From a virus, in the IMG/VR virus record IMGVR_UViG_3300050016_000116, positions 35,645 through 99,644 of that record: a stretch of DNA of 64,000 nucleotides. One strand, written 5' to 3'. Position 1 is the first letter of the stretch. Every line of letters begins with the position of its first letter. Below are positions 4,850 through 62,488 of the stretch, piece after piece. A model generated the notes under the pieces. That model ran no database searches. It saw only the letters and a program-made list of their open reading frames with translations, and was not told the DNA's origin. Position numbers and translations under genes: made by a program.

Positions 4850-4869
4850 TTCGAAAAGCGCTTTTCGAA
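4850..4869. repeat. Dispersed 20-bp perfect palindrome TTCGAAAAGCGCTTTTCGAA (first copy)
   Basis: Exact copies start at 4850, 12155, 15491, 17820, 29770, 34472, 43277, 46468, 52278 and 62447; variants at 17635, 20186 and 24029. Confidence 0.97.
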
Positions 4870-4881
4870 TGGAGACCGACC

Positions 4882-5130
4882 ATGGCAGACCTTCCCCCGC
4901 AGAACCCAGGCTTGACCTCCAACGCGGCTCACAACGCGGCTGCTGCGCTCGTGGAGATGTACCGGGGCATCCTCGTGGACAACGAGCGGGAGAAGCAACT
5001 GCTGCGGATCCGGTTGCTGCGTCTGGAGGACGAGATCAAGAACATCAGGACTCTCTACGCGAACGTGGTGGGTGTGCAGCCGAAGGTGAGTGTCGCTGAC
5101 CCGCTACCCGAGGAACCGGAGCACGACTGA
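4882..5130 (+). CDS. Hypothetical coiled-coil protein
   Basis: GGAG RBS; heptad-like LLRIRLLRLEDEIKNI. Confidence 0.6.
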   Translation: MADLPPQNPGLTSNAAHNAAAALVEMYRGILVDNEREKQLLRIRLLRLEDEIKNIRTLYANVVGVQPKVSVADPLPEEPEHD

Positions 5131-5489
5131 TGCGCGGCTTCCTCTCCAAGACGTTCCAGGAACAGCTCCGGGTCTTCGACCAGGAGAAGGGGATCGATCA
5201 TCGCCTGGACTTCTGGGTGGAGCAGTTCGGGGGTGGAGCCGGGGCTTGGCTCCTCTGGAACTATCGCAAGCAGATCCACAACGCGGGTGCGGTCGACTTC
5301 CAGATCCCCAGGGAGATCCCCACACCTAACTGGATGCGAGTTGCACTTGAGGCGATCAAGAGACTCCCTTACTGGTCCGTGAATATCGTTGGAGGAACGA
5401 AGGACCCCATGAGGCGCTTCCGAGTTCGCTGGCATCGTCACGGTCACTTCAAACGCAAGCCGTCCCTACCCCCGGAGCAACTCTCATGA
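5130..5489 (+). CDS. Hypothetical protein
   Basis: TGATG coupling upstream and ATGA coupling to thyX. Confidence 0.6.
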   Translation: MRGFLSKTFQEQLRVFDQEKGIDHRLDFWVEQFGGGAGAWLLWNYRKQIHNAGAVDFQIPREIPTPNWMRVALEAIKRLPYWSVNIVGGTKDPMRRFRVRWHRHGHFKRKPSLPPEQLS

Positions 5490-7087
5490 CAATGGTGAAT
5501 TATTCGGTTCTTGATCACGGCTACTTGGGACTAGTGGAGAGCTGGGGGAGTGACGAGCGCATCGTGGAGGCGGCGCGCATGTCGACGGGCAAGGGTTTCC
5601 TAGGGTGGGGGCCGAGCACCGTTTGCCAGTGTGGTCGGGAGGTCACTGAAGCCAACGCGCTTGATCATCGCGAGTGCGGCTCACCCACGAAGTTCACGAC
5701 GAGCCCCGGTGACGAGAAGCTCCTTCGCTACCTCTGGGAGAACAAGCACGCGACGCCATTCGAGATGGCGGGGATGACGATCGAGGTGCAGGCGCCCATC
5801 TTCGTCTTCCGGGAGTGGCACCGGCACCGAACGCAATGCCTCGTCGGCGAGACGATGATCGCTTGCGTCTCGCCGAATGGCACGACCTATCAGCGCAGCA
5901 TCAAGAACATCTTCGACCTCAAGTACGGTGGTGTCGAAGACACGCAACCGCGAACGAGGAACGGGACGAGCCGGGGTGGCACGCCCGTCAGACGAGAGGC
6001 GCGGCGGGTGGTCCCGTGGCGCAAGCGTGTTCTGCCCAACTGCCAGGCGCGCGCTCTCCGCGTGCTCAACGAGACGACGGGAGAGTTCGAGACAGCGCCG
6101 ATGGCCGACGTTTGGGAGTCGGGCACGAAGCCCGTCTTCTGCGTGAAGACTGAGACCGGGCGCACCGTCGAGGCGAGCGCTGAGCACCCGTTCTTCACGC
6201 GCGACGGCTGGAAGAAGCTCAAGGAGCTTCGCGTCGGCGATTCGCTTGCTCGCATCGGCGTCGTCGCTACGCGTGAGCGACCGCTCCCTCCGGCGCTCCG
6301 GGCCGGCATCGGCGTGTGGACATCGATGATGAGGGCTCGCCTCATTCGGCAGCCGACGGACTTTTGTTATCTCTGCGAGACGGAGTTCAAGTTCTCGATC
6401 CTCGAACTCGACCACGTCGTGCCGGTGTCGGCGGACCTGTTGCGGGCGCTCGACGCGACGAACCTCCGCCCCATCTGCCCGCGATGCCACAAGAACAAGA
6501 GCGCTGCGGAGCAGCCCTCACGGGAGGGGATGACTCGCCGAGGCGTACGGTGGGAGCGCGTCGTCGAGGTCCGCGAAGTCGGCGACGCGCCTACCTACGA
6601 CATCGAGGTCGACGGGCCGCACCACAACTTCGTCGCCAACGGGCTAGTGGTCCACAACAGCTACAACGAGATGAGCAGTCGCTACATGCCGCTACCGGAC
6701 GTGAACTACATCCCGAGTGTTGAGAGGTTGATGCTCAATTCGAAGACGAACAAGCAGGCGGGGACGGTAAAGGGCTCGGAGGAGATGACTGAGCCGAAGG
6801 CTGGGGCGGTGCGTCATGCGCTGTCGCTCCTCTACGGGGACCAGCAGCGTGCATATGAGGAGTTCCTCAAGTGGGGCGTCCCGAAGGAGCTAGCCCGCGT
6901 CCACCTTCCCGTGGGTCGCTACTCGCGGATGCGCGCGAGCGCGAACCTGCGCAACTGGCTCGCGTTCCTCACGCTCCGGATGGACGAGAAAGCTCAGTGG
7001 GAGATCCGTCAGTACGCGAATGTAGTGGGGGAGATCATCTCTGCACAATTCCCGCGTACGTGGGCACTCTTCTCTGAGAAGCGCTGA
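5486..7087 (+). CDS. thyX: FAD-dependent thymidylate synthase ThyX containing an intein
   Basis: HATPFE and APIFVFREWHRHR; after splicing RHRTQ-SYNEMSSRY restores the RHRx7S signature; GVPKELAR, NLRNWLAFLTLR, AQWEIR. Confidence 0.95.
   Translation: MTMVNYSVLDHGYLGLVESWGSDERIVEAARMSTGKGFLGWGPSTVCQCGREVTEANALDHRECGSPTKFTTSPGDEKLLRYLWENKHATPFEMAGMTIEVQAPIFVFREWHRHRTQCLVGETMIACVSPNGTTYQRSIKNIFDLKYGGVEDTQPRTRNGTSRGGTPVRREARRVVPWRKRVLPNCQARALRVLNETTGEFETAPMADVWESGTKPVFCVKTETGRTVEASAEHPFFTRDGWKKLKELRVGDSLARIGVVATRERPLPPALRAGIGVWTSMMRARLIRQPTDFCYLCETEFKFSILELDHVVPVSADLLRALDATNLRPICPRCHKNKSAAEQPSREGMTRRGVRWERVVEVREVGDAPTYDIEVDGPHHNFVANGLVVHNSYNEMSSRYMPLPDVNYIPSVERLMLNSKTNKQAGTVKGSEEMTEPKAGAVRHALSLLYGDQQRAYEEFLKWGVPKELARVHLPVGRYSRMRASANLRNWLAFLTLRMDEKAQWEIRQYANVVGEIISAQFPRTWALFSEKR
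5837..6658 (+). mobile_element. Intein (274 aa) with an HNH endonuclease domain
   Basis: Starts CLVGET, block B ASAEHPFFT, ends HNFVANGLVVHN followed by Ser+1; internal CYLC...LDHVVP...NLRPICPRCHKNK. Confidence 0.93.
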
Positions 7088-7893: not shown

Positions 7894-10800
7894 ATCGCAG
7901 GCATTTGCCGGGTTCTTCCCGACACCACTGCATCTCCTCCCGCGCATCGCACGTCTGCTCTCTCCCAGGAGAGAGGAAGGTGCTGAGACATCGATTCTTG
8001 ATCCCTGCGCGGGGGAGGGTCATGCGGTCGTGGAGCTGGCGAAGTACCTCTGCAAGCGCAGTCCGAACATCTTCGTGTGTGAGATGGAGTTCACGCGCTA
8101 CGAAGCGCTTGAGAAGACACTCAGAGGAGTCGGGTGCTGGAAGAACGTTCTCCACGGAGACGCATTCCGGGTCACGTTCAAGAAGGGGAGCAATGAGGGG
8201 GTCTCTGTTCTCTACCTGAACCCTCCCTACGACACGCACCCGGTCTACGGACGGTTGGAGCACAAGTTCCTGGAGAGGTTCACCGACACCCTCAAGGATG
8301 GTGGGATTCTCTTCTACGTGGTTCCGTACTACTCCCTCAAGGCATCGGCGGACTTCTTCGCCTCACGATTCTCTGAGCTGCACTGCTACAAGTTCCCGGG
8401 CTCCGACTTTGAGGCGTTCAAGCAAGTTGTCTTGGTCGGGCAGAAGGGAAGTGGACTATTCGGGGAGAGCAACAAGAAGCTGCGCCAAGACGTGCTCACG
8501 TGGGCGGAGGACCCGGAGCGAATCCAGAAGCTCCCAGCGATCCCGGAGCCGCTCTGGGAGGTCCCTTCTTCCCCGCGGTACCACGATGGGTTGGAGGAGT
8601 GGATCATCCGCCCGGTCGACATCACGGCGCTCACGAAGAAGGTGCGCCCATGGATGCAGTCAGCTCGGAATGGAGCGCTCATCCCCATCCCGGGGATCGT
8701 TCCCGATCTCCCGGTCCAAGAGATGCTCCTGCGCCAGTACCCCGTAGCGACCCCTCCTAGACCCGCGCACATCGCGGCAGGCATCGCATCAGGCATCTTC
8801 AACGGAGCCCGTCTGAAGCCATCCTACCGCGAAAGAAGGGCACTCCCGGCTCTCCTCGTGAAGGGGTGCTTTGACAAGGAGTACCGGACGGTGGAGGAGA
8901 AGAAGGACAAGAACGGGAACACCAAGGGTCTCGTTCAGGTTCAGCAGCCGAAGCTGGTCACCACCGTGCTCGACCTCTCAACGTTCCGCTACCACGTGCT
9001 CAAGAGTGGTGTGGAGCCCTGTAAGGGTATCCCCAAGGTCGAGACGATGAGCGTGGCAGACCTCATCGAGCACTATGGGGACTCGATGACGGGGGTGATG
9101 GGGGTGCAGTGCCCGGTGCTCTACGACCCGAGAAGGGACGCGGACTCCATCCCCATCCCGGAGACACCCAGGAAGCTCTTCAACGCCCAAGCGCACGCGG
9201 TTCGAGCGCTGGTGAAGCTTCTCGGAGGACCATCATCGACGAAGAGGAAGCGAAGGGGGAAGGCAGCGATCCTCCTGGGGGAGATTGGGGTAGGCAAGAG
9301 CACGGTCGCAGCAATGGCAGCAGAGACCATCAAGGCGAAGCGCATCCTCATCATGTGCCCACCTCACCTCTTGACCTCGTGGACGAACGAGTGCGCGGCA
9401 GTGCTCCCGCACGCAGAGGTGGTCGTCCTCAACAATGTGGAGGACGTGGACGCGCTCGTTTCGAGGAAGCAGCGGAGGGGGACGACCAAGCGCACGATCG
9501 TCACGCTCCTCACACGCGAGACAGCGAAGCTATCGCACTCCCGGGAAGGAGTTGGGGGAACTTGCCCGAAGTGCGGGTCATCCCTTCCCTTCGACCCCGA
9601 GGATCTTGCGAAGAAGCGGGAGCGCTGCGAGCACATCCCCAAGACACCCTCCAACAAGCTCGCAGAGATCTCCATCCGACTTGGCTATCGGCTCCTCCCG
9701 TTCTCGGGGGACGTGGCTGCATACTTCGGTGGGTTCTTCGACAAGCAGCGCGCGAATGCCTACGACTCGATGGAGAAGCGGCCGCAATTCCGAGGGCTCA
9801 CCCTCGGGGAGCTGGATGACGCGCTCGTGGAGCTTCTCATGCTTCTCCCGCAGTCTCTCGACAGCGAGACGCGTACCAAGGTCGAGAATGCGATCGTGGT
9901 CATCCTCCATGCAGCGGGAGACGAGGAGCGCACGTTGAAGACAGCGGCAATCGTCGCTGCGAACAACAACTCATGGACCCACTTCGAGCAGGACTTGCTC
10001 CTCTTGCTTCCTCCTGGCGATCCGCGGGTAGCGCAGTTCATCAAGGAAGTGAAGGAAGCTGAGAAGCCCAAGAGCTACGGCGGTGACGTTTGGCACGCGT
10101 TCGAACAGCGAGTGCAGGATTCGAAGGAGGGGAAGGCAAAGGCAGGTTCGATCGATGTCTCCTGGGCATCGGGGGAGCTGATGCTGCACTCGAAGTGCAA
10201 GCGCGGGTCTCTCGAAGCAGCACGTGCAGCGTTCATTGGGATTCGGGTTTTCTCCACCTTCGAGGATGGTGAGCCGTGCGGGGAGTTCCTCTTCCAGGCA
10301 GTTCCGACCCCGAGACGTGTTGCGCTCTCTTCCTACATCACGAAGTACCACCCGGAGCTGTTCGACTTCCTCGTGCTCGACGAAGGACACGAGTACAGCT
10401 CTGACTCCAGCGCGCAGAGCTTCGCTGCCCACCGTCTCACCGCACTCGGGCTCCCCACGATCTTGATGACCGGGACGATCATGAACGGGTACGCAGAGAG
10501 CTTGTTCACGAACCTCTGGGCGCTCTCCCCCGCGTTTCGTTCGGAGTTCGATCGCAACGAGCGCCAGCGGTTCATCGACCGCTACGGGTATCGCAAGCGA
10601 ATCGTGGAGGACCGGGACAAGGAGACCAAACAAGTGGTCGAGTTCGGTTCGCAGTCGGATCGAGTGGTCCGCTCAGAGCGGGTTGTCGGCAATGCTCCCG
10701 GGCTCCTCCCGCTCTTCCTCCTGCGCCACCTTCTCCCCATCTCCGTCACGCTCCACAAGACGGACTTGGCGATCGATCTCCCTCCCCTGCGTCAGGAGAG

Positions 10801-11614
10801 GTTCCGCGTGAAGCCGACAATCAAGCAGCACCAGTTCTACGACCAGCTCAAGGATGCTCTGGTGACGCAGATCAAGGCAGACCGTTACGTGGAAGGACTT
10901 GCGGGGAAGCTCTGGGGTCAGCTTGCAGAGCTACCGTCCTACTTGGACCGGGCGCACGAGGGGTTTGAGATTCGCTACCCGGAGTCGGTGGGTGGAGCCA
11001 TTGTGGCAAGCGTTCCCCCTCTCCCGCTCACCCCCGTGCTCCCAAAGGAGCGATGGATCCTCGACAAGGTGCAGAGCGAGCTGGACGAGGGAAGGAACGT
11101 GATGGTGTTCTCTTGGCACCTCTCGCTCCTCCCGCGACTTCAGCGGCTCATCTCCGAACACATCGGGGAGGACGTTCCTATCCTCTTCGCGGACAAGGTC
11201 CCGACAGCGAAGCGCCAGGATTGGATCGATCGCGAGGTCATCCGGAAGGGAGCGCGGGTGATGTGCGCGAACCCTGTCGCTATCCAGACGGGGCTCAACA
11301 ACTTGGTCTACTTCGCCACGGAGATCTGGCACGAGAACCCGGCGTGCAACCCCATCACCTACCGCCAAGCGGTCGGGCGGGTGGATCGTATCGGGCAGAA
11401 GAAGGACACACGGATCTTCTTCCCGATCTACGAGGAGACACTCCAGGAAGCGCTCTACGACCTCCTGATGAAGAAGGTCGCTGTTTCCGTCAGCACGGAT
11501 GGACTAGATCCCGAGTCAGCACTTCAGGCAGCGGGAGCCGGAGAGGACGAGTACATGATGGGTCTGTCGATTGGTCGGCAGCTCTGGAAGATGATGAACG
11601 AAGAGGCAGCATGA
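7880..11614 (+). CDS. Adenine methyltransferase (DUF6094-like) fused to an SF2/SNF2-like helicase
   Basis: Probable start MARPESQAFAGFFPTP at 7880; DPCAGEG, LYLNPPY; helicase motifs GEIGVGKS, LDEGH, MTGT, QAVGRVDRIGQ. Confidence 0.88.
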   Translation: MARPESQAFAGFFPTPLHLLPRIARLLSPRREEGAETSILDPCAGEGHAVVELAKYLCKRSPNIFVCEMEFTRYEALEKTLRGVGCWKNVLHGDAFRVTFKKGSNEGVSVLYLNPPYDTHPVYGRLEHKFLERFTDTLKDGGILFYVVPYYSLKASADFFASRFSELHCYKFPGSDFEAFKQVVLVGQKGSGLFGESNKKLRQDVLTWAEDPERIQKLPAIPEPLWEVPSSPRYHDGLEEWIIRPVDITALTKKVRPWMQSARNGALIPIPGIVPDLPVQEMLLRQYPVATPPRPAHIAAGIASGIFNGARLKPSYRERRALPALLVKGCFDKEYRTVEEKKDKNGNTKGLVQVQQPKLVTTVLDLSTFRYHVLKSGVEPCKGIPKVETMSVADLIEHYGDSMTGVMGVQCPVLYDPRRDADSIPIPETPRKLFNAQAHAVRALVKLLGGPSSTKRKRRGKAAILLGEIGVGKSTVAAMAAETIKAKRILIMCPPHLLTSWTNECAAVLPHAEVVVLNNVEDVDALVSRKQRRGTTKRTIVTLLTRETAKLSHSREGVGGTCPKCGSSLPFDPEDLAKKRERCEHIPKTPSNKLAEISIRLGYRLLPFSGDVAAYFGGFFDKQRANAYDSMEKRPQFRGLTLGELDDALVELLMLLPQSLDSETRTKVENAIVVILHAAGDEERTLKTAAIVAANNNSWTHFEQDLLLLLPPGDPRVAQFIKEVKEAEKPKSYGGDVWHAFEQRVQDSKEGKAKAGSIDVSWASGELMLHSKCKRGSLEAARAAFIGIRVFSTFEDGEPCGEFLFQAVPTPRRVALSSYITKYHPELFDFLVLDEGHEYSSDSSAQSFAAHRLTALGLPTILMTGTIMNGYAESLFTNLWALSPAFRSEFDRNERQRFIDRYGYRKRIVEDRDKETKQVVEFGSQSDRVVRSERVVGNAPGLLPLFLLRHLLPISVTLHKTDLAIDLPPLRQERFRVKPTIKQHQFYDQLKDALVTQIKADRYVEGLAGKLWGQLAELPSYLDRAHEGFEIRYPESVGGAIVASVPPLPLTPVLPKERWILDKVQSELDEGRNVMVFSWHLSLLPRLQRLISEHIGEDVPILFADKVPTAKRQDWIDREVIRKGARVMCANPVAIQTGLNNLVYFATEIWHENPACNPITYRQAVGRVDRIGQKKDTRIFFPIYEETLQEALYDLLMKKVAVSVSTDGLDPESALQAAGAGEDEYMMGLSIGRQLWKMMNEEAA

Positions 11615-11841: not shown

Positions 11842-12251
11842 AGCGGGTCCCGGTCGACTTCCGTTACGATGCGGTGAACCCGGACTTCCTTCTGGCGCTC
11901 GCGAAGATCGGATCGTACGCGTCGGAAAAGTACGGGAGCTGGTCGCAATACACCGGAGCACGTCTCCTCGGAGATAAGGATCCCGTCAATCACATCTACG
12001 AACACCTCCGGCAGTACCAGATGAACGAGGGGTACGATCACTTTGACGGAGACGTGCGCTGGCATCTCGTCGCGGTCGCTTACAATGCCATGATGAGCTT
12101 CTGGTACCACTCGAAGTGGGGCGCGCTTCGTCACCCCCTCGACCTCAAGGAGGATTCGAAAAGCGCTTTTCGAACCGGGGAGGTTCGCTCCGTTCCCGGC
12201 ATCCGCATCTACGAGTTTCCAGGGGAAAAGAAGCCCTCCAAGAAAAAGTAA
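11838..12251 (+). CDS. dATP/dGTP diphosphohydrolase domain protein (DUF5664-like)
   Basis: RYD..P..L.ALAKI..Y.SEKYG...H...W..HL.AVAYNAMM pattern; GTGA overlap. Confidence 0.75.
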   Translation: MKRVPVDFRYDAVNPDFLLALAKIGSYASEKYGSWSQYTGARLLGDKDPVNHIYEHLRQYQMNEGYDHFDGDVRWHLVAVAYNAMMSFWYHSKWGALRHPLDLKEDSKSAFRTGEVRSVPGIRIYEFPGEKKPSKKK

Positions 12252-12427: not shown

Positions 12428-13285
12428 ATGGTTGCTCGAACATCGAAGGCGAGCCACGGCGCGGCGGTGAAGTTGATCGTGGGCGACACGCGCGACGAGT
12501 TGCAGCGGCTCTCTGCCGGGATGTTCAACTGTTGCGTAACGAGCCCCCCGTACTGGGGACTCCGCGACTACGGGCACAAGACGCAGATCGGCGCAGAGGA
12601 CACCGTGGACGCCTACATTGCTTCGCTCGTGCAAGTGTTCCGTGAGGTGCGGCGCACGTTGCGTGACGACGGTACCCTCTGGCTCAACATCGGAGACAGC
12701 TACACGAGCGGCAACCGCACGTGGCGCGACCCGGACAAAAAGAACCCGGCGCGCGGGATGAGCTACCGTGCCCCAACCCCAAAGGGGTTGAAGCCGAAGG
12801 ATCTGATCGGCGTGCCGTGGCGCCTGGCGTTCGCTCTCCAGGCGGACGGGTGGTTCTTGCGGTCGGACATCATCTGGTACAAGCCCAACTGCCAGCCCGA
12901 ATCGGTGAAGGATCGTCCGACCCAGTCGCACGAGTACATCTTTCTGCTCTCCAAGTCGCAGGACTACTACTACGACACGGAGTCGGTCCGGCAGCCCACG
13001 AAGGACGGGCGCTCTACGCGCATGCGTCGCTCGGTGTGGGAGGTCAACACGGAGCCGTACGCAGGGGCGCATTTCGCCGTGTTCCCGCCGTCACTCGTCC
13101 GGCCATGCGTCCTCGCAGGCAGTCCGAAGAGCGGTCTTGTGCTGGACCCGTTCTTCGGCTCCGGCGCTCTCGGCGTCGCGTGCCTTGAGACGGATCGTTC
13201 CTGCATCGGTATCGAGGTAAAGGAGGAGTACGCGGAGCTGGCTAGGGAGCGGCTGCGAGGTCTCCAGCTTGGGCTACTAGGATGA
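12428..13285 (+). CDS. Beta-class N4-cytosine DNA methyltransferase, M.SmaI/M.XmaI-like (CCCGGG predicted)
   Basis: VTSPPYWGLRDYG, KPNCQPESVKDRPT, DPFFGSG; convergent SmaI-like endonuclease remnant. Confidence 0.85.
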   Translation: MVARTSKASHGAAVKLIVGDTRDELQRLSAGMFNCCVTSPPYWGLRDYGHKTQIGAEDTVDAYIASLVQVFREVRRTLRDDGTLWLNIGDSYTSGNRTWRDPDKKNPARGMSYRAPTPKGLKPKDLIGVPWRLAFALQADGWFLRSDIIWYKPNCQPESVKDRPTQSHEYIFLLSKSQDYYYDTESVRQPTKDGRSTRMRRSVWEVNTEPYAGAHFAVFPPSLVRPCVLAGSPKSGLVLDPFFGSGALGVACLETDRSCIGIEVKEEYAELARERLRGLQLGLLG

Positions 13286-14335: not shown

Positions 14336-15490
14336 ATGGCAGTCCTCGCGCTCCTTCCTGCGTACCTCATCAACCAAGTTGCAATCGGTGGTGGGGCGTC
14401 TGGTCCCCTGGTGCTTCGAGCTGGAGAGAAGATCTCCGACTCTGCAACCCTTGCATTGGTGCTTGGTGCCGGTGGGCAGGTTGCATCGACGTCGGATCCC
14501 ATCGTGTCCGCTGCGCAGTTGGTCGTCACCAAGTTGCGTGCGAACGGAGCAGATGAGCGGATCTGCAACGAGATGATGATCGCAGCACTGGCTGCATCGT
14601 TCGGTTCGGGCGAGGGCAACGCGGAGTTCGGCGATGGGTCGGATGGAGCCGTCGTGTTTGACGGTGTCGCAACCGTCCTCGGTCTCGTCCCTTCCACGAA
14701 GGCGTACACCCTCACGAAGGACATCTTTGTGAAGACTGCCGTAGTGGCAGCGGGTGCGATCATCATCGGCGCGGGCTTCCGGATCTTCGCCTCGGTGTCT
14801 CTCACGAACAACGGGACCATCCACAACGGCGGCAACCCGGGACTCATCGGTTCCGCGGGAGCGGGCGGCGCAGCGGGTGGCGCAGTCGCAGCCGGTTCTC
14901 TCGGTGGAGGTAGCGCCGGAGGAGCGGGTGGGTCTGCGGGTGTCGGAGCGGCTGGCGCGGCTCAGACGGCCAACACGGGCTTCCCGGGTGGCACTGGCAT
15001 CGGCGGTGTCGGTGGAGGGGACGGCACGCACCTCGGTGGTGCAGCCGGCACGTGGAGCGCGATGGCAGCCGCGGACGGTAACTTCCGCACCCTCTCTGCG
15101 GCGGTCAACGGCTGGGTCATCAGCGGTGCCGGCACCACCTTCACGCTCAAGGGTGGGTCGGGCGGTGGCGGTGGCGCTTCCGACAACGCAGACGGTGGCG
15201 GCGGTGGCGGTGGGTCGGGCGCAGGCGTGATGGTCATCGCGGCCTACTTGCTCATCAACAACGGCGTCATCCACTGCAACGGGGGACTCGGCGGAGCTGG
15301 CTTCTCGCCCGGCAACAACGCGGGTGGGGGTGCTGGCGGCGGCGCAGGCGACCTCATCACGGTGGCGCGCACCTACTTGGGCACGGGCACCTACTCGGTC
15401 GCAGGGGGTGTCGGTGGCGCCAAGGTCGGAGCTGCGGGAGTCGCGGGGCTCCCCGGAGCGGTCGGAACGTTCCTCCAGCTCGCGGCCTGA
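14336..15490 (+). CDS. Glycine-rich virion-associated (tail/fibre-like) protein
   Basis: FGDGSDG...TNNGTIHNGG and GGGGGSGAG repeats typical of phage glycine-rich domains. Confidence 0.7.
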   Translation: MAVLALLPAYLINQVAIGGGASGPLVLRAGEKISDSATLALVLGAGGQVASTSDPIVSAAQLVVTKLRANGADERICNEMMIAALAASFGSGEGNAEFGDGSDGAVVFDGVATVLGLVPSTKAYTLTKDIFVKTAVVAAGAIIIGAGFRIFASVSLTNNGTIHNGGNPGLIGSAGAGGAAGGAVAAGSLGGGSAGGAGGSAGVGAAGAAQTANTGFPGGTGIGGVGGGDGTHLGGAAGTWSAMAAADGNFRTLSAAVNGWVISGAGTTFTLKGGSGGGGGASDNADGGGGGGGSGAGVMVIAAYLLINNGVIHCNGGLGGAGFSPGNNAGGGAGGGAGDLITVARTYLGTGTYSVAGGVGGAKVGAAGVAGLPGAVGTFLQLAA

Positions 15491-15544
15491 TTCGAAAAGC
15501 GCTTTTCGAAAGGACGGCACTCGGGTGGGTAGGAGGATTCCCTC

Positions 15545-15991
15545 ATGCCCACTCAAGTGTCGGATCAGTTTCGCGAGCAGCTTCTCATCTCGGTAGTCAC
15601 TGCTCTCGTTCGGGAGCACGCGAACACGCAGGATCAGCCTTCGTGGATCGATGTAGCCGGTGAAGCAGAGATTCTTGTGGAAGCGGTCATCGCTCGGGAG
15701 GAGCGACGGCTGACCAAGGACTCCCTTGCGTTCGTCGACCAAGCGCTCAGCGCGTTCAACGACCTCACCGAGAAGAAGGAGTGGCGCAAAGCAGGCGTCC
15801 TCTTGGCGCTCTTCAAGCAAGGGCTCAGTGCCACATGCTCTGCCCCTCTCCAGGTCGTCAACGCGGCGCTCCTCGGTCTGATGCAGGGGAAGTCCCCGGG
15901 GAGCATCGGATCCGAGGAGGTGGCGACGGTGTTGGAGATGTTCACCAACGCCAAGCGACAGCTCGAAGCTGACTTGGGTATCCCGCAGTGA
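15545..15991 (+). CDS. Hypothetical protein
   Basis: AGGAGG RBS. Confidence 0.65.
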   Translation: MPTQVSDQFREQLLISVVTALVREHANTQDQPSWIDVAGEAEILVEAVIAREERRLTKDSLAFVDQALSAFNDLTEKKEWRKAGVLLALFKQGLSATCSAPLQVVNAALLGLMQGKSPGSIGSEEVATVLEMFTNAKRQLEADLGIPQ

Positions 15992-17634: not shown

Positions 17635-17769
17635 ATCGCAAAGCGCTTTGCCAAACGGCACTCTCTCCTCGGAGGTAGCGAAGGTCCAACCCAGCGGCCC
17701 CCTCTTCGCCGTGACGTCTCGCTGAGACCATCCTAGAGGCGCCTAGGAGCCGCGTGCTAGCTTCTCGGG

Positions 17770-19524
17770 ATGAAGTCAGCACGCAGGCGCGCGCCCGAAC
17801 CCTCTCCCCCCAAGCCTGATTCGAAAAGCGCTTTTCGAAACTCCTCAACTTCTGGAGCCCAAGTGCTCGAAGCGGGGGATGTAGCGCTCGCTTCCATCCT
17901 TCGGGATGAAGTCTTCGCAGACGCGATGAAGGCAAGGGAGGACATCTTCACGTTCTTCGAGTTCGTGATGCGTCGCTTCGACAAGCGTGAGCCCATCCAG
18001 CTTGCAGCGCATCAACGTGTGCTCCTGGAGTTCTTCATGGCGCACGATCGTTCTGTCGCAATGTGTCCGGTCGGTTCCTCGAAGACGTGGATCGCGGTTG
18101 GGCTTGCGCTCTTCTTCCTTGGTCAGAACCCCGAGTCACGAGGGGCAGTTGTCTCTGCGACCGAGGGGCAGGCGAAGAAGTTCGTGCAGCTTGTTCGCGG
18201 GTACATCACTGAGTCCCCCGAGCTGAGGATGGTCTTCCCTCACCTCATCCCTTCGCAGAGGGACGGAGAGCAGTGGACGCAGACAAGCATCACCGTGCAG
18301 AGGTCAGTCGGCATCAAGGATGCGTCTCTCACCGCGTACGGGATTGACAGCCCTTCGATCGTCGGTTCTCGTCTCGCCTGGGTCATTGTCGACGACATCC
18401 TCAGTGACGAGAACACGTACACCCCCGAGTCACGTGACCACGTCCTTCGGCTCTTGAACGGGCAGGTTCTCTCCCGTCTCGATCCCATCGGCTCCAAGGT
18501 CATCATGATCAACACCCCCTGGCATCCTGACGACGTGGTTCATCACGCCAGGGACAAGCGCGGGTGGGCGACAATCCGCATGGACATCTACGGTGACATC
18601 GAGGTCTGGGACGACGCCTCCACGGAGATCGAGACCCATCCGCACTACGGGAAGTATTGGGACAGCGACATGCTCCGTCCCGCAGAGCCGGCGAACACGA
18701 ACAACCGCTGCTGCCGACTCGTCGCGCACGAACCCGACCCTGACAACTCGGTTCCCCTTTGGCCGGAGGAGCGCCCGATCGAGTGGATTGAGAACACGAA
18801 GCGGGAGCTGAACTTCAACACCCTTGTCTTCAATCGCAACTACCGCTGCCTAGTGCGCGATGACGAGAGCAGCATGTGCAAGCAAGTTTTCGTGGACCGC
18901 TGCTTGAAGATGGCGCGTGACCTCGGCATCTACGGTCTCGTCTCGGTCTACAAGGGCCCTTACCTCACGTTTACCGGGGTGGACCTCGCGTTTGCAGAGC
19001 ACGACAAGGCGGATGAGACCGCGTTCTTCACCTTTGAGGCGAGACCGGGCGGCATCAACGTCATCTTGGACATCGAGATCGGACGTTGGGACAGTCCGAC
19101 CGTCATCCAAAAGATCATCGACAAGCAGAAGGCATTCAACAGCACGGTCAGGGTCGAGAGCAACGCTGCGCAGATTGCGATCAAGCAGTTCGCGCTCCAG
19201 AGGGACAAGAGCTTGCCTATCAAGGCGCACATGACGGGAAGGGCGAAAGCTCACCCCGAGTACGGCGTGCCGGGGCTCTTCTCGGAGATGGAGAATGCGG
19301 CGTGGGTTCTCCCGAACTCCCCCCGTGGTCAGCAGAGCCCGCAGATCGAGCGCTTCATCCGGGACTGCCTTCACTACGTCCCGAGCAAGCACACCGCGGA
19401 CATCCTCATGGCCGCGTACTTCGCCCGGGAACAGAAGCGCGAGTGGATGGGGCTCTCGGGGAAGGGCAACCAGGCAGGTACCCCGGGGCAACCGTCTGCT
19501 ATCGCGGGGGTCATGTCTCGGTAG
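17770..19524 (+). CDS. terL: Terminase large subunit
   Basis: Walker A-like CPVGSSKT, Walker B WVIVDD, INTPWHPDD, nuclease TGVDLA...VESNAAQ...ADILMA. Confidence 0.9.
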   Translation: MKSARRRAPEPSPPKPDSKSAFRNSSTSGAQVLEAGDVALASILRDEVFADAMKAREDIFTFFEFVMRRFDKREPIQLAAHQRVLLEFFMAHDRSVAMCPVGSSKTWIAVGLALFFLGQNPESRGAVVSATEGQAKKFVQLVRGYITESPELRMVFPHLIPSQRDGEQWTQTSITVQRSVGIKDASLTAYGIDSPSIVGSRLAWVIVDDILSDENTYTPESRDHVLRLLNGQVLSRLDPIGSKVIMINTPWHPDDVVHHARDKRGWATIRMDIYGDIEVWDDASTEIETHPHYGKYWDSDMLRPAEPANTNNRCCRLVAHEPDPDNSVPLWPEERPIEWIENTKRELNFNTLVFNRNYRCLVRDDESSMCKQVFVDRCLKMARDLGIYGLVSVYKGPYLTFTGVDLAFAEHDKADETAFFTFEARPGGINVILDIEIGRWDSPTVIQKIIDKQKAFNSTVRVESNAAQIAIKQFALQRDKSLPIKAHMTGRAKAHPEYGVPGLFSEMENAAWVLPNSPRGQQSPQIERFIRDCLHYVPSKHTADILMAAYFAREQKREWMGLSGKGNQAGTPGQPSAIAGVMSR

Positions 19525-19540
19525 CGGCATTCCTTTGGGT

Positions 19541-19825
19541 ATGAACTACCTTGTCACTGCCCCAAGTCCCACACGGCTCTCCTACCTCTTCGTCCGCCCC
19601 AACGGGAAGGGAGCGCAAGCGCGCTGGCTGAACTTCACTGGGCTCGTCCTCCGGTACTTGAGCCGGTATGACATCACGATCGCGCATCATCCCTCTGACC
19701 TAGATCCACCGGTCTGGACGGGACGTAGGTGGGAGCCGTACAAGCCGCACTTCTTCGCCGGCAACCTCCTCGTGGACCTCGCGGATGCGAAGCCGGTCAT
19801 CATCAGCGAGGCTTGGGACCGATGA
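19541..19825 (+). CDS. Hypothetical protein
   Basis: ATG 16 nt after a CGGCATTCC motif; ATGA coupling downstream. Confidence 0.55.
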   Translation: MNYLVTAPSPTRLSYLFVRPNGKGAQARWLNFTGLVLRYLSRYDITIAHHPSDLDPPVWTGRRWEPYKPHFFAGNLLVDLADAKPVIISEAWDR

Positions 19826-20087: not shown

Positions 20088-20302
20088 ACGGGCGATTCGC
20101 GTGAGGCAGCGCTACCTTCGTCTACTTGCAGCGGAGATGTGGAGGACATCGTCATCCGTTTCGACGGAGGAGATGCAGGAGTTGGTTCGCAAAGCGCTTT
20201 GCCAATCCCTTCCTCCCCTCACTGACCAAGGGTGCGAACCAACCCCCTGGCGCTTGCGGAGAGCAGACGGCACTCTTTGGCCATGTGCGTATTCTTACTC
20301 AC

Positions 20303-20497: not shown

Positions 20498-20552
20498 TGG
20501 CCCCGGCGCTTTCACTCTTGTGCGCGGGCGGCGAGAGGGTGACGTGGCGATC

Positions 20553-24019: not shown

Positions 24020-24168
24020 CCGGAGTCATTCGCAAAGCGCTTTTCGAATCAAGGAGAGCAGTGATGCTAGATACGGGTTGCGAGATGCCGAACCGCTCAT
24101 ACCCCCATGACATTCAGAACCTTGATCCCGAGTTCCTGAGACGTAGCAGCTCACCGCCGGAGAAGACG

Positions 24169-25190: not shown

Positions 25191-25205
25191 CGGCACTCTC
25201 TCGGG

Positions 25206-25484: not shown

Positions 25485-25536
25485 ATCGACATCGGCTCAG
25501 CTTGTAGTCCTAGCTTTGAGTCGTAGGGTCTTCCCC

Positions 25537-29742: not shown

Positions 29743-29792
29743 AGGCTCCTAGGAGCGCGGCACTCAGGATTCGAAAAGCGCTTTTCGAATCC
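29672..29792. repeat. Composite element: CTAG-rich inverted repeat plus the 20-bp palindrome (other copies at 34376-34494 and 62352-62469)
   Basis: AGGAGCCTCTAGG...53 bp...CCTAGAGGCTCCT followed by the palindrome; same geometry in three places. Confidence 0.8.
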
Positions 29793-34360: not shown

Positions 34361-34508
34361 TTACGGCTCCCTGTCGCCTCAAGGACGCGTTTTCAGCCCA
34401 AGGTTGACCCGAGACCCATCCAAGGGTCGGTAGTGCGTCCTAGGGGCTCCTAGACCCATCCGTGGTACGGATTCGAAAAGCGCTTTTCGAATCCAGGAGG
34501 AGCCCCCC

Positions 34509-37862: not shown

Positions 37863-37863
37863 C

Positions 37864-43174: not shown

Positions 43175-43180
43175 TTCCTC

Positions 43181-43483
43181 GTGAAGCTCCTGGAGGCTGT
43201 TCGCGTTCGGATTGGCGAAGGGCTCATCCACCTGGGGACGAGGGTGCTGGGTTTGGACTTCGCTACCCTGGAAGGATTCGAAAAGCGCTTTTCGAATCCC
43301 GAGGATGACGAGGAGGAAGACCACGACGTAGCGCTGGCTCAACCTGTCGTCATCACTGAGCTAGCGCAGGAGATGATAAGACAGGGGAGACCGATGCCCC
43401 CTCCCGCTCCTTCCCCTCCTCGTCCACCTCCCACGGGGAGCATCGCGGCAAGGATGCTTGCTGCCAATCGTTCTCGCCGGTAG
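43181..43483 (+). CDS. Hypothetical protein containing an in-frame palindrome copy
   Basis: ORF between genes; the palindrome reads FEKRFSN. Confidence 0.5.
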   Translation: MKLLEAVRVRIGEGLIHLGTRVLGLDFATLEGFEKRFSNPEDDEEEDHDVALAQPVVITELAQEMIRQGRPMPPPAPSPPRPPPTGSIAARMLAANRSRR

Positions 43484-52277: not shown

Positions 52278-52317
52278 TTCGAAAAGCGCTTTTCGAATCC
52301 ACATCAAGAGGTGAGCG

Positions 52318-60193: not shown

Positions 60194-62092
60194 ATGCCTG
60201 AAGAGACAGAGATCCACGCGAAGCTGGTACTGGACGAAGGGGCAAAGGAAGCCGCTGAGAAGATGGGAGAGGGGTTTGAGCACCTCTCCGAGCGGGTACA
60301 CGAGACCCAGCACGAGTTGATGGGTATGGCGAAGCAGGCGCTAGCCATGGCAGCCGGCTTCCAGCTCTCTCATGGCATCGAGAGCATCAAGGAGTTCGGG
60401 CACGAAGTCATCGGTGCAGCGATGGCCAGCGAGGACCAGATCCGGGCTCTCGCTGGTCTCGTTGCCATGACCGACAAGACTGGCATGTCCTTTGAGGAAA
60501 CTGAGGAGAGGGCAAAGGACCTCCACGAGAACCTGGAGAAGATGGCGATCGAGGCTGGGCAATCGGGTCAGGCTGTAGGGGATGCGTTCGAACTCATCGC
60601 GTCTCGGTCGCAGAAGTCCTCAGAGGAAGTGCTCGCGCTCACTGACAAGATGGCGACTGCGGCCAAGCTCCTACCAGCGGGCATTGAGAGCATCGCGGGA
60701 GCCTGGCGCGACATGGAGACGGGGATCGTGCGCCCCAAGAATGCGCTTGTGCAGCTCATGGTCCAGACCCACACGGTCAATGGGACAATGAAGCAGGTAG
60801 CGCACACGATCTCTGAGATGCTTCAGAAGGGGGAGTCAGAGAAGGTCTTCAAACTTGCAGAGACAGCAATCGACAAGATGGCGCAGAAGGCAGAGCACGC
60901 CCCATTCACTTTTCGTCAGCTCGCTACTTCTCTCGAAGGGGTGCGCGAAGTTGCGTACAAGACGTTCGGTGAACCTCTGCTTGCCTCGCTTACACCTCCC
61001 GTGGAGAAGCTTCGATCCTACTTTCTCCACAATGAGGAGCGCATCGAGCATTGGGCTCATACCGTAGGGGAGAAGGCAGGGGTATGGATTACCAGCGCAG
61101 CGGGATCACTGGAGCACGCGTTCGAATATCTCCAGAGTCACGCAGATGAGATCGAGAGTGCGATCAAGACGGGTGCATCTGCCCTGATGGCGGTGATGAG
61201 TTTCATCGTCGACCACAAGGATGTCATCGCGGCGGCGTGGGGCGCCAACATGGCAGCTAAGGGAGTCAGTGGGATCGCAAGTCTCGCGAGTGGGCTGGGT
61301 GGGTTGGGCGGGATGAGCATGGCAGGTATGGCCAGCTCAGTCGGTCCTCAGATGGCTTTCGTTGCCATGGTGGCGTCTCTTGTCGCGGCTGCTGACCAGA
61401 CGATGAAGCTCAACGAAGAGCTGGACTCCTACGGAAGGTCTGGAGATGCGGCTGCAAAGATCCGCGCCATGGAGACCGCTGCACTCGAAGGTAACACTGT
61501 GCAGGTTCGGAAGTGGGCGGACGAGATTGAAGCACTCGATCCCACTCTCGTCTCTCTCGCCAATACGATTAGTGATCTCACCAGTGCGACCAAGCAGGCG
61601 AATGCGGCGCTCGATGCGGGAACTGTTACTGACGTCTATTCGTTGGAGACATTCGCAGCCTATGCTCCCGAGAAGGTGGCGGGGCAGTTCTGGACTGACT
61701 TCGGTATTGCGATGACGACGGCCCACAAGAGCACCAACGAGAAGGTGATGGGTGAGTTTCTTGTCACGCACCACGAGGCATTCGACAGGGTGTTGGATGC
61801 GATGCGCCGGACGAAGATGGACATTGGCGCGGAGAGCACGGAGCTGGCCAACGCGCTCGCGGGCATGGGCCATAAGGACATGGCGGACAAGGTGAAGGCA
61901 GCCGCGAAGAGGGGAGCCGATGGGGCTCACCCCGGGGCACCAAACTATGACTTCCGAGGATCCAACTTTCACATCAAGCAGGACTTCCGCGACCAGGATC
62001 CTGACAGGGTGATGATTGAGTTCAGGAAGGATCTTCAGAAACATGCGGTAGCGCGTATTCAGAGCCGGAACGCCACGCCGTTTGGACTCTGA
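60194..62092 (+). CDS. Tape measure protein
   Basis: Ala-rich, helical, follows the chaperone pair. Confidence 0.8.
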   Translation: MPEETEIHAKLVLDEGAKEAAEKMGEGFEHLSERVHETQHELMGMAKQALAMAAGFQLSHGIESIKEFGHEVIGAAMASEDQIRALAGLVAMTDKTGMSFEETEERAKDLHENLEKMAIEAGQSGQAVGDAFELIASRSQKSSEEVLALTDKMATAAKLLPAGIESIAGAWRDMETGIVRPKNALVQLMVQTHTVNGTMKQVAHTISEMLQKGESEKVFKLAETAIDKMAQKAEHAPFTFRQLATSLEGVREVAYKTFGEPLLASLTPPVEKLRSYFLHNEERIEHWAHTVGEKAGVWITSAAGSLEHAFEYLQSHADEIESAIKTGASALMAVMSFIVDHKDVIAAAWGANMAAKGVSGIASLASGLGGLGGMSMAGMASSVGPQMAFVAMVASLVAAADQTMKLNEELDSYGRSGDAAAKIRAMETAALEGNTVQVRKWADEIEALDPTLVSLANTISDLTSATKQANAALDAGTVTDVYSLETFAAYAPEKVAGQFWTDFGIAMTTAHKSTNEKVMGEFLVTHHEAFDRVLDAMRRTKMDIGAESTELANALAGMGHKDMADKVKAAAKRGADGAHPGAPNYDFRGSNFHIKQDFRDQDPDRVMIEFRKDLQKHAVARIQSRNATPFGL

Positions 62093-62136
62093 GTAATTCG
62101 TGGTAGCGTCACTTCATCCCACGCACGAGGAGAGCC

Positions 62137-62334
62137 ATGGCATTCCCCCCGAAGAAGACTCCCGGATCCGTTTCGTCCAGCTCGTCCCCGAGCGATTCCC
62201 CCGCGTCGTCTTCGACCGTGATGCCCGCTGGGTCGGGTTCCTCGATGACCGCTTCCTCCATGTCTGCGTCCTCGTCATCGAGCGCGGAGGACAACCCGAT
62301 GGCGGCGTGGGTCAAGAAGAGGGGCGGGAAGTAG
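62137..62334 (+). CDS. Ser-rich small protein ending AEDNPMAAWVKKRGGK
   Basis: GAGGAG RBS; shares its C-terminal motif with 30965-31237. Confidence 0.6.
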   Translation: MAFPPKKTPGSVSSSSSPSDSPASSSTVMPAGSGSSMTASSMSASSSSSAEDNPMAAWVKKRGGK

Positions 62335-62488
62335 CAACGGTGGCGTCCTGGCGCCTCTAGGACGCGTTTTCCGGCTCCAGCCCAACGTCCGCTAGGGTCA
62401 CGGTTGGGAAGCGCGTCCTAGAGGCGTCTAGGAGGTCGGAACCGGATTCGAAAAGCGCTTTTCGAATCCCCCTGGAGAGCGTGCCCCT

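Follow-up and report, generated by a model that had tools for sequence, protein, structure and literature searches.

Palindromic sites in the genome of a peat phage

The stretch analysed here (the window, 64,000 nucleotides) is the final 64 kb of the complete 99,644-bp genome of an uncultured phage from peat, here called G000, in which all genes lie on one strand. The window encodes, among others, a ParB-like protein (W46-741, the prefix W marking window coordinates), a dATP/dGTP diphosphohydrolase-like protein, TerL, an endolysin and a portal protein, and it is interspersed with a 20-bp palindrome, TTCGAAAAGCGCTTTTCGAA, present in 10 exact and 3 variant copies (Table 1) against 0 expected; 100 dinucleotide shuffles of the window contained 0 copies. 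The complete 99.6-kb genome holds 13 exact copies which, together with variants, make up 20 sites with the common core AAAGCGCTTT. All 10 exact copies listed in a preliminary description of the window were recovered, as was the GA that directly precedes each of them (10/10), and a GGA...TCC extension lengthens four of them to 26 bp. The same description had read two variants as carrying a compensatory A>C/T>G exchange. The symmetric A5C/T16G pair is indeed present in the variants at 20186 and 17635, but each has an additional uncompensated change, and the variant at 24029 carries A5C with no partner change.

Table 1. Palindromic sites and an adjoining promoter-like motif in the window (window coordinates).
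Position	Strand	Feature
4850..4869		Exact copy; 7 nt past the stop of W4414-4842, 12 nt ahead of ATG 4882
12155..12174		Exact copy; within the non-conserved 3' tail of W11838-12251 (dATP/dGTP diphosphohydrolase-like)
15491..15510		Exact copy; adjoins the TGA of W14336-15490; CGGCACTC motif 4 nt downstream
15515..15522	+	CGGCACTC promoter-like motif, beside the copy at 15491
17635..17654		Variant ATCGCAAAGCGCTTTGCCAA, 4 mismatches; adjoins the TGA of W17056-17634; CGGCACTC 1 nt downstream (17656-17663)
17820..17839		Exact copy; 23 nt ahead of the called TerL start W17863 (GTG)
20186..20205		Variant TTCGCAAAGCGCTTTGCCAA, 3 mismatches; intergenic
24029..24048		Variant TTCGCAAAGCGCTTTTCGAA, 1 mismatch; 15 nt ahead of ATG 24064; RNA-library contig spans the site
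29770..29789		Exact copy, 26-bp GGA...TCC form; CGGCACTC 4 nt upstream (29758-29765); Shine-Dalgarno and ATG 15 nt downstream
34472..34491		Exact copy, 26-bp form; 17 nt ahead of endolysin ATG 34509; RNA-library contig spans the site
43277..43296		Exact copy, 26-bp form; in a 325-bp stretch upstream of portal gene W43499
46468..46487		Exact copy; 19 nt ahead of ATG 46507
52278..52297		Exact copy; adjoins the TGA of W51882-52277; 20 nt ahead of ATG 52318
62447..62466		Exact copy, 26-bp form; 22 nt ahead of TTG 62489

The exact 20-mer was found in no IMG/VR contig other than this genome. Among 185,579 species genomes it occurs in eight, each time as a single copy, and the two matches inspected read FEKRFS in what appears to be an ordinary coding region. 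A common host REP-like repeat, the possibility raised against a phage-specific role, is not what was found among these species genomes, in none of which the 20-mer is repeated. A megablast of 24 kb against phage records returned no match, and TerL reaches 24-29% identity in its best match to any phage record.

Placement relative to genes and transcription signals

About 15-16 of the 20 G000 sites are intergenic, though the genome is ~92% coding. At six of the 20 a TGA stop codon directly adjoins the site, and about ten stop short of the following start codon by 11-23 nt, immediately 5' to its Shine-Dalgarno sequence. Ortholog-aligned segments contain a single G000 site (G000:13573, in a helicase). 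Three copies had been assigned to open reading frames, which holds only in part: the copy at 12155 does lie in a gene, but in its non-conserved 3' tail, whereas that at 43277 falls in a stretch with no confident gene and that at 17820 precedes the probable start of TerL.

In G000, the palindrome and a promoter-like motif of the form CGGCACTC-N7-start occupy a common junction six times (hypergeometric P=0.004). The distance between the two is variable, and the palindrome may stand on either side of the motif, an arrangement that fits a repressor better than an activator. Significance is confined to G000, the corresponding adjacency in the relative G002 giving P=0.27. A sigma-70 promoter scan returned 0 sites versus 3.0 in shuffles, and a terminator scan remained at chance level.

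Private palindromes in related phages

In each of about 24 related genomes or contigs there is a different, private palindrome, 16-26 bp long, with 7-26 copies per ~100 kb in the complete genomes. The families include TTGGAAACCCGGGTTTCCAA in G001 (18 copies), CCCAAACCCGGGTTTGGG in G002 (26), GGGAACCCGGGTTCCC in G003 (20-21), GTCGAGGCCCGGGCCTCGAC in G004 (17-18), CCGACATCGATGTCGG in G018 (19) and TGTTCACCCGGGTGAACA in G020 (21); further families are found in G005, G006, G008, G009, G010, G015, G016 (7 sites) and about 10 additional contigs. Every family has a central CpG, and GAAA...TTTC arms are common to many. Two cores recur between phages, GGAAACCCGGGTTTCC in G001 and G005 and GAACCCGGGTTC in G003 and L164. 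G006 has the closest capsid protein to that of G000 (81% identical), yet its word is already different. The one relative with no palindrome family is G007 (77% complete, 72.8 kb). In G015 the majority form is slightly asymmetric, with an orientation bias of 8:2, which hints at some strand-specific constraint on the sequence. GC content across these phages ranges from 53 to 71%.

Copies that are identical within a genome but diverge from one genome to the next require a sequence-recognising reader acting in trans. Spacing is more even than random in all nine genomes analysed (CV 0.34-0.60 versus ~0.93, P<=0.014 each), with intervals of ~5 kb. Positions are partly syntenic: 21 of the 60 mappable sites lie within 400 bp of a G000 site, versus 10.2 expected (P=0.0005), and some occupy the same gene junctions while the words differ completely. 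One such interval is that of the copy at 62447 (G000 genes 129-131), where G002, G003 and G004 each have their private palindrome as well. Wholesale replacement of the word between relatives, while some positions stay, points to a single genome-wide sequence reader with fast-evolving specificity; after recombination between phages, the sites would need to be brought back into agreement with the reader.

The same observations make it very improbable that the palindromes are selfish elements, either miniature palindromic insertions or targets of homing or HNH nucleases, spreading within each genome. The copies are identical, a few lie in open reading frames in different frames, and the genome encodes HNH nucleases and inteins, all of which is in keeping with such elements. 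Against them stand the even spacing and the retention of positions with replacement of sequence across genomes that share only ~35-60% protein identity; moreover, not all members of the clade have the nuclease genes, and neither target-site duplications nor presence/absence polymorphisms were seen.

Double-stranded DNA as the probable target of selection

The G000 variants reuse the half-site changes A5C and C3G in free combination, with seven uncompensated and two compensated changes. Complementarity between the flanks (232 observed) does not exceed the 241.8 expected when the 3' flanks are shuffled among copies (P=0.83), and flank pairs of the G-U type (52) are not in excess over those of the A-C type (57), both tests being of modest power. 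Uncompensated variants, the absence of covariation in the flanks and the lack of a G-U excess argue, within the modest power of these tests, that selection acts on double-stranded DNA with a symmetric protein as the probable reader, and not on a hairpin. The earlier suggestions that selection acts on the nucleic acid and that the site is the target of a dimeric protein are both in keeping with this pattern: half-sites mix freely, pairing does not covary, and relatives have private versions, so that the site has the appearance, judged from its sequence, of a dimer-binding site.

The RNA processing hairpin, also proposed earlier, is disfavoured by the same data. In its broader form, the sites would act in RNA as hairpins of 9-11 bp with a 4-nt loop (predicted at -10 to -14 kcal/mol), serving as terminators, processing sites or stabilisers of mRNA ends between cistrons, possibly with a phage RNA-binding protein. 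The sites do lie between cistrons in a genome with all its genes on one strand, stop codons adjoin many copies, and the asymmetric G015 form favours sense-strand G-U pairs by 10 to 4. However, a hairpin has no need of perfect palindromy through the loop, which is found in about 24 independent families, and structure alone leaves the exact sequence identity within a genome unexplained. The stem is A/T-rich and is followed by no U-tract (T-run in the DNA), compensatory covariation is absent from flanks and core variants alike, and G-U pairs overall are not above A-C pairs. RNA-library contigs cross two of the sites, a weak point since DNA carry-over is possible; such contigs cannot show transcript ends, and the parts they leave uncovered carry no meaning. 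A function in RNA is accordingly regarded as improbable.

Association with the replication module and a candidate reader

Gene content associates the palindromes with the T4-like replication module. The genes common to G020 and G000 are limited to those for replication/recombination and TerL; G020 nevertheless carries 21 sites, of which 14 fall elsewhere than in this module. The palindrome-free G007 has its structural module in common with G000 and shows no homologue of the replication module in its 72.8 kb, an absence that is not proven in a genome 77% complete. These comparisons suggest that the palindromes travel with the module.

Pfam and PHROG scans of about 90 proteins identified few DNA-binding domains, the one clear case being a DnaA-C-type HTH (W30421-30768); it was rejected as the reader because it has no homologue in the relatives. 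The leading candidate is the gene-20 family, a putative NtrC/Fis-type HTH whose gene follows that of the primase directly on its downstream side, beyond the limits of the window (G000:18855-19139). Among PDB profiles it matches the NtrC DNA-binding domain best (1ntc, E=0.0018). In Foldseek, the list obtained with its model is headed by the DNA-binding domains of Fis and of NtrC/sigma-54 activators, all at E>2 and none significant, and Pfam gives sub-threshold HTH matches only. The gene-20 profile is significant in the 10 palindrome-bearing genomes that cover this module; in G018 it is marginal in a first pass (E=0.011) and scores 4e-9 when rebuilt, and in G007 it has no match. Sequence covariation does not confirm the candidate. 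The recognition helices differ within the pairs G001/G005 and G003/L164 despite their common palindrome cores, whereas the group with an ATCGAT centre has a common RRx(L/F)Y motif that may reflect common descent. A homodimer prediction for the protein scored 0.04 and is counted neither for nor against it.

Linkage to a replication module also suits the main rival to the function proposed below, namely that the sites are docking sites on duplex DNA for replication, recombination or genome organisation, read by a protein of the T4-like replisome module; we consider this possible but unlikely. The sites could then be dispersed origins, helicase-loading sites, entry points for recombination-dependent replication or condensation anchors. 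It is the replication/recombination module, not the structural one, that accompanies the palindromes, the even ~5 kb spacing recurs in 9/9 genomes, the sites also cover modules that are non-homologous between phages, and promoter adjacency is weak outside G000. For two proteins universal to the module and lacking an assigned function, the only leads are weak protein-atlas links to the families of the gp59 helicase loader and the gp32 SSB. Such a role fits less well with the clustering of sites at gene boundaries beside promoters or Shine-Dalgarno sequences and with the significant promoter-motif association in G000. No origin-binding protein was found, and we know of no phage system with about 20 dispersed palindromic origins.

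A host protein as the reader, with each phage mimicking the site of its own host, is most unlikely. Palindromes with a central CG resemble operators of several bacterial families, and the hosts probably differ, because GC content varies so widely (53 to 71%) among the phages. However, the 20-mer is a repeat in none of the species genomes searched, words differ between close relatives whose GC content is similar, and the presence of the palindromes tracks a phage gene module. Readings as a LexA/Cheo box, PurR/LacI-type operators or sigma-54 promoters, compared by eye, were dropped for a misfit of spacing or sequence across the clade.

The ParB-like protein and the hypermodification cluster

According to the preliminary description, W46-741 could use the palindromes as parS-like loading sites, spread from them and in this way direct TET/JBP-dependent hypermodification to phage DNA. 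The protein has a genuine ParB/Noc/KorB-type N-domain with a GEHR box, supported by the PHROG ParB-like profile (E=2.8e-16), a PDB profile match to Noc (E=1.6e-9) and Foldseek matches to ParB, Noc and KorB. Its gene is found in G000-G005, G015, G017, G019, G023 and G024. parS and the Noc-binding NBS are dispersed palindromes with a CG-containing centre, as the phage sites are. The OB operator of KorB (PMC11790492) is likewise of this kind.

Phyletic distribution nevertheless dissociates the gene from the palindromes. The ParB-like profile has no match at E<=10 in the complete palindrome-bearing genomes G016 (7 sites), G018 (19) and G020 (21), and it does match a homologue in G007, the palindrome-free relative. 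The TET/JBP and hypermodification cluster has homologues in G001 and G005 only, so that the co-occurrence of palindromes with ParB-TET loci expected in related phages breaks down: G002, G003, G004, G015, G016, G018 and G020 have palindrome families of the same size and lack the cluster. In the structural model of W46-741 the N-domain is followed by no more than three short helices, of which the putative recognition helix is acidic (NDQLMKLL), and by an RHH-like beta-alpha-alpha C-terminus; no canonical basic HTH was recognised in it. The C-terminal beta-strand (RMVQLYF or RMVQLFF) is nearly constant among phages with different palindromes. ParA (PF13614), tyrosine integrase (PF00589) and resolvase-type serine recombinase (PF00239) have no match in the genome, so that neither partition nor lysogeny is indicated. 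Loading of the ParB-RHH protein at the palindromes and recruitment of TET/JBP to phage DNA are both left unsupported; phyletic dissociation argues that the combined model is largely refuted, and we hold it to be highly doubtful. The tempting link between a ParB-like protein, TET/JBP hypermodification and the palindromes is thereby removed as wrong. ParB-like homologues also occur in the unrelated phages G011-G013, which have no palindrome families and are uninformative in this respect.

Proposed function of the palindromes

In a whole clade of ~100-kb soil and peat phages, a private, perfectly symmetric word recurs at even intervals in about 20 copies per genome. The reading we favour, and to which we give about an even chance, is that the palindromes are duplex-DNA docking sites of a putative phage-encoded dimeric protein whose gene travels with the T4-like replication/early module, and that they probably function as genome-wide operators or roadblocks. 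A two-fold symmetric, sequence-specific phage protein would bind the sites with high affinity on double-stranded DNA, and its specificity would drift from phage to phage, all ~20 sites per genome following. Placed every ~5 kb at gene or operon boundaries, past stop codons and beside promoters or Shine-Dalgarno sequences, the sites would most likely serve in transcription control or insulation across the genome during lytic growth. A role outside transcription is equally compatible with the even spacing and with the linkage to the replication module.

Identification of the reader would reveal a new global regulator or a new factor of replication or genome organisation. It would also provide about 24 protein-site pairs as a natural series for learning a recognition code. 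Should the reader of the evenly spaced set belong to the T4-like replisome module, with the sites as dispersed origins, helicase-loading sites or chromosome-organising anchors, an outcome to which we assign a low probability, the replication module would carry a private site sequence, and any gene module newly taken up would need to acquire sites that match it. This would amount to a hidden compatibility rule for mosaic phage evolution.

Comparison with known systems

In the large genomes of P1 and phiC31 a single regulator has multiple dispersed operators, the C1 operators in the former and the conserved inverted repeats in the latter. The NBS of Noc are palindromes with a central CG, of which many are scattered over a chromosome. 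Differences from the present sites lie in the asymmetry of the P1 operators, in the temperate life style of both phages, and in the part that Noc plays in a cell-division checkpoint, where it anchors DNA at the membrane. To our knowledge, none of these systems has a private word in each close relative at conserved positions.

The stoperators of Cluster A mycobacteriophages, read by L5 gp71, are 13-bp asymmetric, orientation-dependent sites bound by a monomer in temperate phages, and the repressor blocks both initiation and elongation (PMC6550527, PMC9283540). They number about 20-30 boundary sites genome-wide, and their sequence co-evolves with the repressor between related phages (PMC6550527, PMC9283540). 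Many dispersed gene-boundary sites with a sequence that changes between relatives are found here too; the sites of G000 differ in being symmetric, in a genome with a T4-like replisome and neither a tyrosine integrase nor a resolvase-type recombinase. The stoperator-like repressor network mentioned in the preliminary description is the closest in spirit of its alternatives, but the genes named for it (W30421-30768 and W30768-30944) have no homologues in the relatives.

KorB acts through 12 OB operators in the global control of plasmid RK2 (PMC11790492). The resemblance lies in a short perfect palindrome distributed over a ~60-100-kb replicon, with copies both beside and far from promoters, in a single reader, putative in the phage, and in the ParB fold that the phage also encodes. 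The phage site is longer (20-26 bp versus 13 bp for OB), the ParB-like gene and the palindromes do not co-occur in the phage clade, and neither ParA/IncC nor a canonical HTH was recognised.

Cluster O mycobacteriophages carry 17-bp dyad repeats (TGTTCGG-NNN-CCGAACA, 34 copies in Corndog), which have been proposed as targets of a dimeric protein (PMC4351075). As in G000, tens of invariant inverted repeats are dispersed in one genome, private to the phage group, absent from the host and mostly located in short intergenic regions or near gene starts (PMC4351075). The two are not related in sequence, the words being different and no phage record giving a nucleotide match. In G000 the palindrome is longer (20-26 bp) and perfect through its centre, with a central CpG in place of a variable spacer, and the sites are evenly spaced, are linked to the replication module and take a different word in each genome at partly the same junctions. 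The reader of the G000-type sites may explain similar repeats, such as those of Cluster O.

Palindrome distribution in the phage genome

The window forms the final 64 kb of a 99,644-bp IMG/VR virus record (G000; 61% G+C), which CheckV grades as complete and in which almost every gene is on the + strand. The phage is of myovirus type: it encodes the large terminase, portal, major capsid and sheath proteins, along with several DNA methyltransferases. Its T4-like replication/recombination module comprises helicase, second helicase, primase, family-B polymerase, a RecA-like protein, SbcCD and a RuvC-like resolvase (gene names partly from PHROG matches). A nucleotide search with 24 kb of G000 against ∼50,000 phage records returned no match. 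DNA of G000 was found in metagenomes from peat and permafrost and in one peat metatranscriptome library. In that library, 28 contigs match the phage at ≥99% identity, covering 25 of 30 bins; the phage or its RNA occurred in an independent peat sample. The two contig ends share one 9-bp tandem repeat, and the assembly probably broke inside such a repeat within a genome that is circular or circularly permuted.

The 20-bp palindrome TTCGAAAAGCGCTTTTCGAA is present as 10 exact copies and 3 variants in the window, where shuffled sequence gives none, and as 13 exact copies in the whole genome, with AAAGCGCTTT common to 20 sites. GA precedes every exact window copy, and four copies extend to a 26-bp palindrome, GGA...TCC (GGATTCGAAAAGCGCTTTTCGAATCC). 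Of the 20 sites, approximately 15-16 lie between genes, with ∼92% of G000 coding; a TGA stop directly adjoins six, ∼10 end 11-23 nt 5' of a start codon, and just one overlaps a protein segment alignable with orthologues. The word was absent from IMG/VR contigs other than G000 and was found in 8 of 185,579 species genomes, one copy each, and so does not behave as a host repeat; around the two of these matches that were read individually, the sequence translates as FEKRFS, within apparently ordinary coding regions.

One contig in DNA run X1 links two palindrome copies that lie 13.5 kb from each other. Given the length of the repeat, such a join may be an assembly error or may reflect recombination between copies. 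Separately, a composite element precedes three palindromes and recurs near two further positions: a terminator-like hairpin ending AGGACGCGTTTTC, ∼50 nt, then the complementary arm CGCGTCCTAGAGGC(T/G)(C/T)CTAGG. It may serve as a promoter cassette or form alternative (attenuator-like) structures.

Coordinates and sequences of the features discussed (W, window position; G001-G024, other phage genomes; L, further IMG/VR contigs or loci)
Feature	Genome or contig	Position	Detail
ParB-like/TET cluster	window	46-4013	ParB-like, TET-JBP, amino-acid:DNA transferase, P-loop kinase
Split ThyX gene	window	5486-7087	Pfam Thy1, Intein_splicing, HNH
Methyltransferase-like genes	window	8030-11614, 12428-13285, 20544-21320, 21578-22675	one fused to SNF2 helicase
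DnaA-C-type HTH protein	window	30421-30768	PF08299, E=9e-12
Metatranscriptome-library matches	window	23500-43400	
Linked palindrome copies	window	29791/43276	run X1
Composite element	window	29672-29769, 34370-34471, 62345-62446	also near 16502, 17732
Contig ends	G000	1-100, 99545-99644 (window 63901-64000)	CACTCGCCG / CACTCCTCG
RecA-like gene	G000	28932-31169	745 aa
Further replication/early-module genes	G000	18619-18849, 19126-19629, 15133-15609, 22042-24020, 26590-27279, 27616-28932	first two are neighbours of the candidate reader
Candidate reader gene	G000	18855-19139	NtrC/Fis-type HTH
Promoter-like motif	window and G000-wide	3474-31710 (window)	CGGCACTC, n=17
Promoter-like motif, examples	window	W15515, W17656, W29758, W3474, W20268, W23008, W25191, W26245, W31693	
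Tandem ParB-like paralogues	G001	L034:6100-7457	adjoin TET/JBP gene
Tandem ParB-like paralogues	G005	28577-30800	adjoin TET/JBP gene
ParB-like gene	G007	3147-3635	
36-bp palindrome with canonical parS	G007	L058:3859-3894	TGTTTCACGTGAAACA
Promoter-like block	L077 / G012	e.g. L077:14322-18197	TTGGCATGGCGCGTGCTATAAC-N7-ATG, at least 5 copies
Palindrome family	G001		TTGGAAACCCGGGTTTCCAA, 18 copies
Palindrome family	G002		CCCAAACCCGGGTTTGGG, 26 copies
Palindrome family	G003		GGGAACCCGGGTTCCC, 20-21 copies
Palindrome family	G004		GTCGAGGCCCGGGCCTCGAC, 17-18 copies
Palindrome family	G005		GGAAACCCGGGTTTCC, 16 copies in 77 kb
Palindrome family	G006		CGAAAGTCGACTTTCG, 9 copies in 60 kb
Palindrome family	G008		CCTCGGAACGTTCCGAGG, 9 copies
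Palindrome family	G015		GACCAAAAGGCGC(C/T)TTTTGGTC, 16 copies
Palindrome family	G016		CTGAACATCGATGTTCAG, 7 copies
Palindrome family	G018		CCGACATCGATGTCGG, 19 copies
Palindrome family	G020		TGTTCACCCGGGTGAACA, 21 copies
Other words	G009, G010, L009, L014, L019, L072, L076, L160, L164, L166, L170, L171		

Related phages carry private words at partly shared positions

Relatives were collected from IMG/VR via their capsid, primase and ParB-like proteins (full records for 14), and nearly every clade member has a perfect-palindrome family of its own. A central CpG is present in all ∼24 words, and GAAA...TTTC arms recur in many of them. G006, which encodes the nearest capsid protein (81% identical), already has a word different from that of G000. 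The core of the G000 word is found in the more distant contig L010. Position is partly conserved. With the sites of G001-G004 placed on G000 through flanking orthologues, 21 of 60 fall ≤400 bp from a G000 site against 10.2 expected (P=0.0005; ∼2x random), for example in the interval before W62489, at the polymerase gene 3' end, where the gene for the SbcD C-terminal part begins, and at gene junctions around terminase and capsid. In each of nine genomes analysed, the sites are also spaced more evenly than random (CV 0.34-0.60 vs 0.93).

Sequence comparisons favour duplex DNA over RNA hairpins

Transcribed, a site would form a predicted 9-11-bp hairpin (-10 to -14 kcal/mol). Three comparisons of the sequences argue against selection for RNA pairing. 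Among the six G000 variants, two half-site substitutions (A5C, C3G) recur and are freely combined, with 7 uncompensated changes vs 2 compensated. Flank complementarity outside the invariant cores (232) is no greater than the 241.8 expected with 3' flanks permuted between copies of one genome (P=0.83), so that each side follows its own consensus, as the half-sites of a symmetric protein would. Sense-strand flank pairs show no G-U excess (52 G-U-type vs 57 A-C-type). Furthermore, no U-tract was found at the sites, a terminator scan gave no more canonical terminator-like sites than chance, and the perfect symmetry through four would-be loop bases in ∼24 families is not required by a hairpin. RNA-library contigs span sites W24029 and W34472, a weak hint against a hairpin role given possible DNA carry-over. 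The sole result dissonant with the duplex-DNA reading is the majority form of G015, which is slightly asymmetric with an 8:2 orientation bias.

The ParB-like and TET/JBP proteins are dissociated from the palindromes

The preliminary description proposed that the ParB-like protein W46-741 could load at the palindromes, spread and recruit TET/JBP to phage DNA. The protein does have a real ParB/Noc/KorB-type N-domain, and its C-terminal beta-alpha-alpha segment could be RHH-like. However, homologues of TET/JBP and its partner genes are present in G001 and G005 only. With the threshold relaxed to E<=10, the ParB-like family profile still finds no match in G016, G018 or G020, all three complete genomes, and it does match G007, the sole relative without a palindrome family. 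The ParB-like C-terminal strand is almost unchanged among phages with unrelated words. For a partition or lysogeny setting, ParA, tyrosine integrase and resolvase were all not found in G000. These four results indicate that the sites serve neither to mark DNA for modification nor as a centromere for partition, and the lack of recombinase genes makes a lysogeny-type immunity network unlikely.

In G007, a single canonical parS lies within a 36-bp perfect palindrome, and this phage may use a classical ParB-parS pair. Two tandem ParB-like paralogues adjoin the TET/JBP gene in G001 and G005. A TET that oxidises 5mC would need a C5-cytosine methylase, a type to which none of the four methyltransferase-like genes in the window was assigned. 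The ThyX gene is split by an intein that has an HNH endonuclease domain.

The palindromes are linked to the replication module

Beyond the replication/recombination genes, all that G020 has in common with G000 is a distant terminase and a fragment of a methylase; the structural genes of G020 are unrelated. Its 21 sites nevertheless extend across the full 113 kb, and 14 lie outside the common module. Conversely, G007 has the structural module of G000 and no palindrome family, and no homologue of the replication module was found in the 72.8 kb searched, although this contig is 77% complete, which weakens this half of the argument. From this contrast, the putative dimeric protein that reads the palindromes is most likely encoded in or with the T4-like replication module. 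Within this module just one DNA-binding family is recognisable, a small HTH protein of NtrC/Fis type encoded immediately 3' of the primase, frequently as two tandem paralogues (top PDB match, the NtrC DNA-binding domain, 1ntc, E=0.0018). The family occurs in every palindrome-bearing genome covering the module and not in G007, and in G000 a palindrome and a promoter motif are located 5' of the gene. The fold match is weak, however, and the recognition helix fails to track the palindromes in two core-sharing phage pairs, leaving this protein as a candidate only.

The RecA-like gene of G000 is unusually long. A small protein with a DnaA C-terminal (DnaA-box-binding) HTH domain has a homologue in none of the relatives.

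Promoter motifs and possible function

A second, mostly intergenic motif, CGGCACTC, lies exactly 7 nt 5' of ATG/GTG in ∼9 cases, without a Shine-Dalgarno sequence, and resembles a promoter specific to the phage that would drive leaderless mRNAs. Analogous motifs occur in relatives, such as GGCATAAGG-N6/7-ATG in G002. In G000, palindrome and motif-N7-start share a gene junction six times (P=0.004), the palindrome being placed just 5' of the motif (-35 region) or just 3' (around +1), an arrangement that a repressor or roadblock would tolerate and an activator would not. In relatives, a stop codon often precedes the palindrome, and a -10-like box and then a leaderless start codon come after it; the palindrome's association with G002's own motif is not significant. 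On this arrangement we favour, at roughly even odds, a role in which the palindromes would serve as genome-wide operators or insulators. A role in replication or genome organisation, to which the even spacing and the linkage to the replication module would point, ranks second and appears rather improbable.

Among published systems, the 17-bp dyad repeat of Cluster O mycobacteriophages (PMC4351075), itself unexplained, comes nearest. As mechanistic models, KorB-OB (PMC11790492) and Cluster A phage stoperators (PMC6550527, PMC9283540) are the nearest. The sites depart from each of these systems in one or more defining features. To such systems the present analysis adds a central CpG that is invariant, even spacing of the sites, the duplex-DNA tests, the dissociation from ParB/TET and the replication-module link.

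In an unrelated phage (L077/G012), a promoter-like block shows sigma-54-promoter-like GG-N10-GC spacing, followed by leaderless starts.
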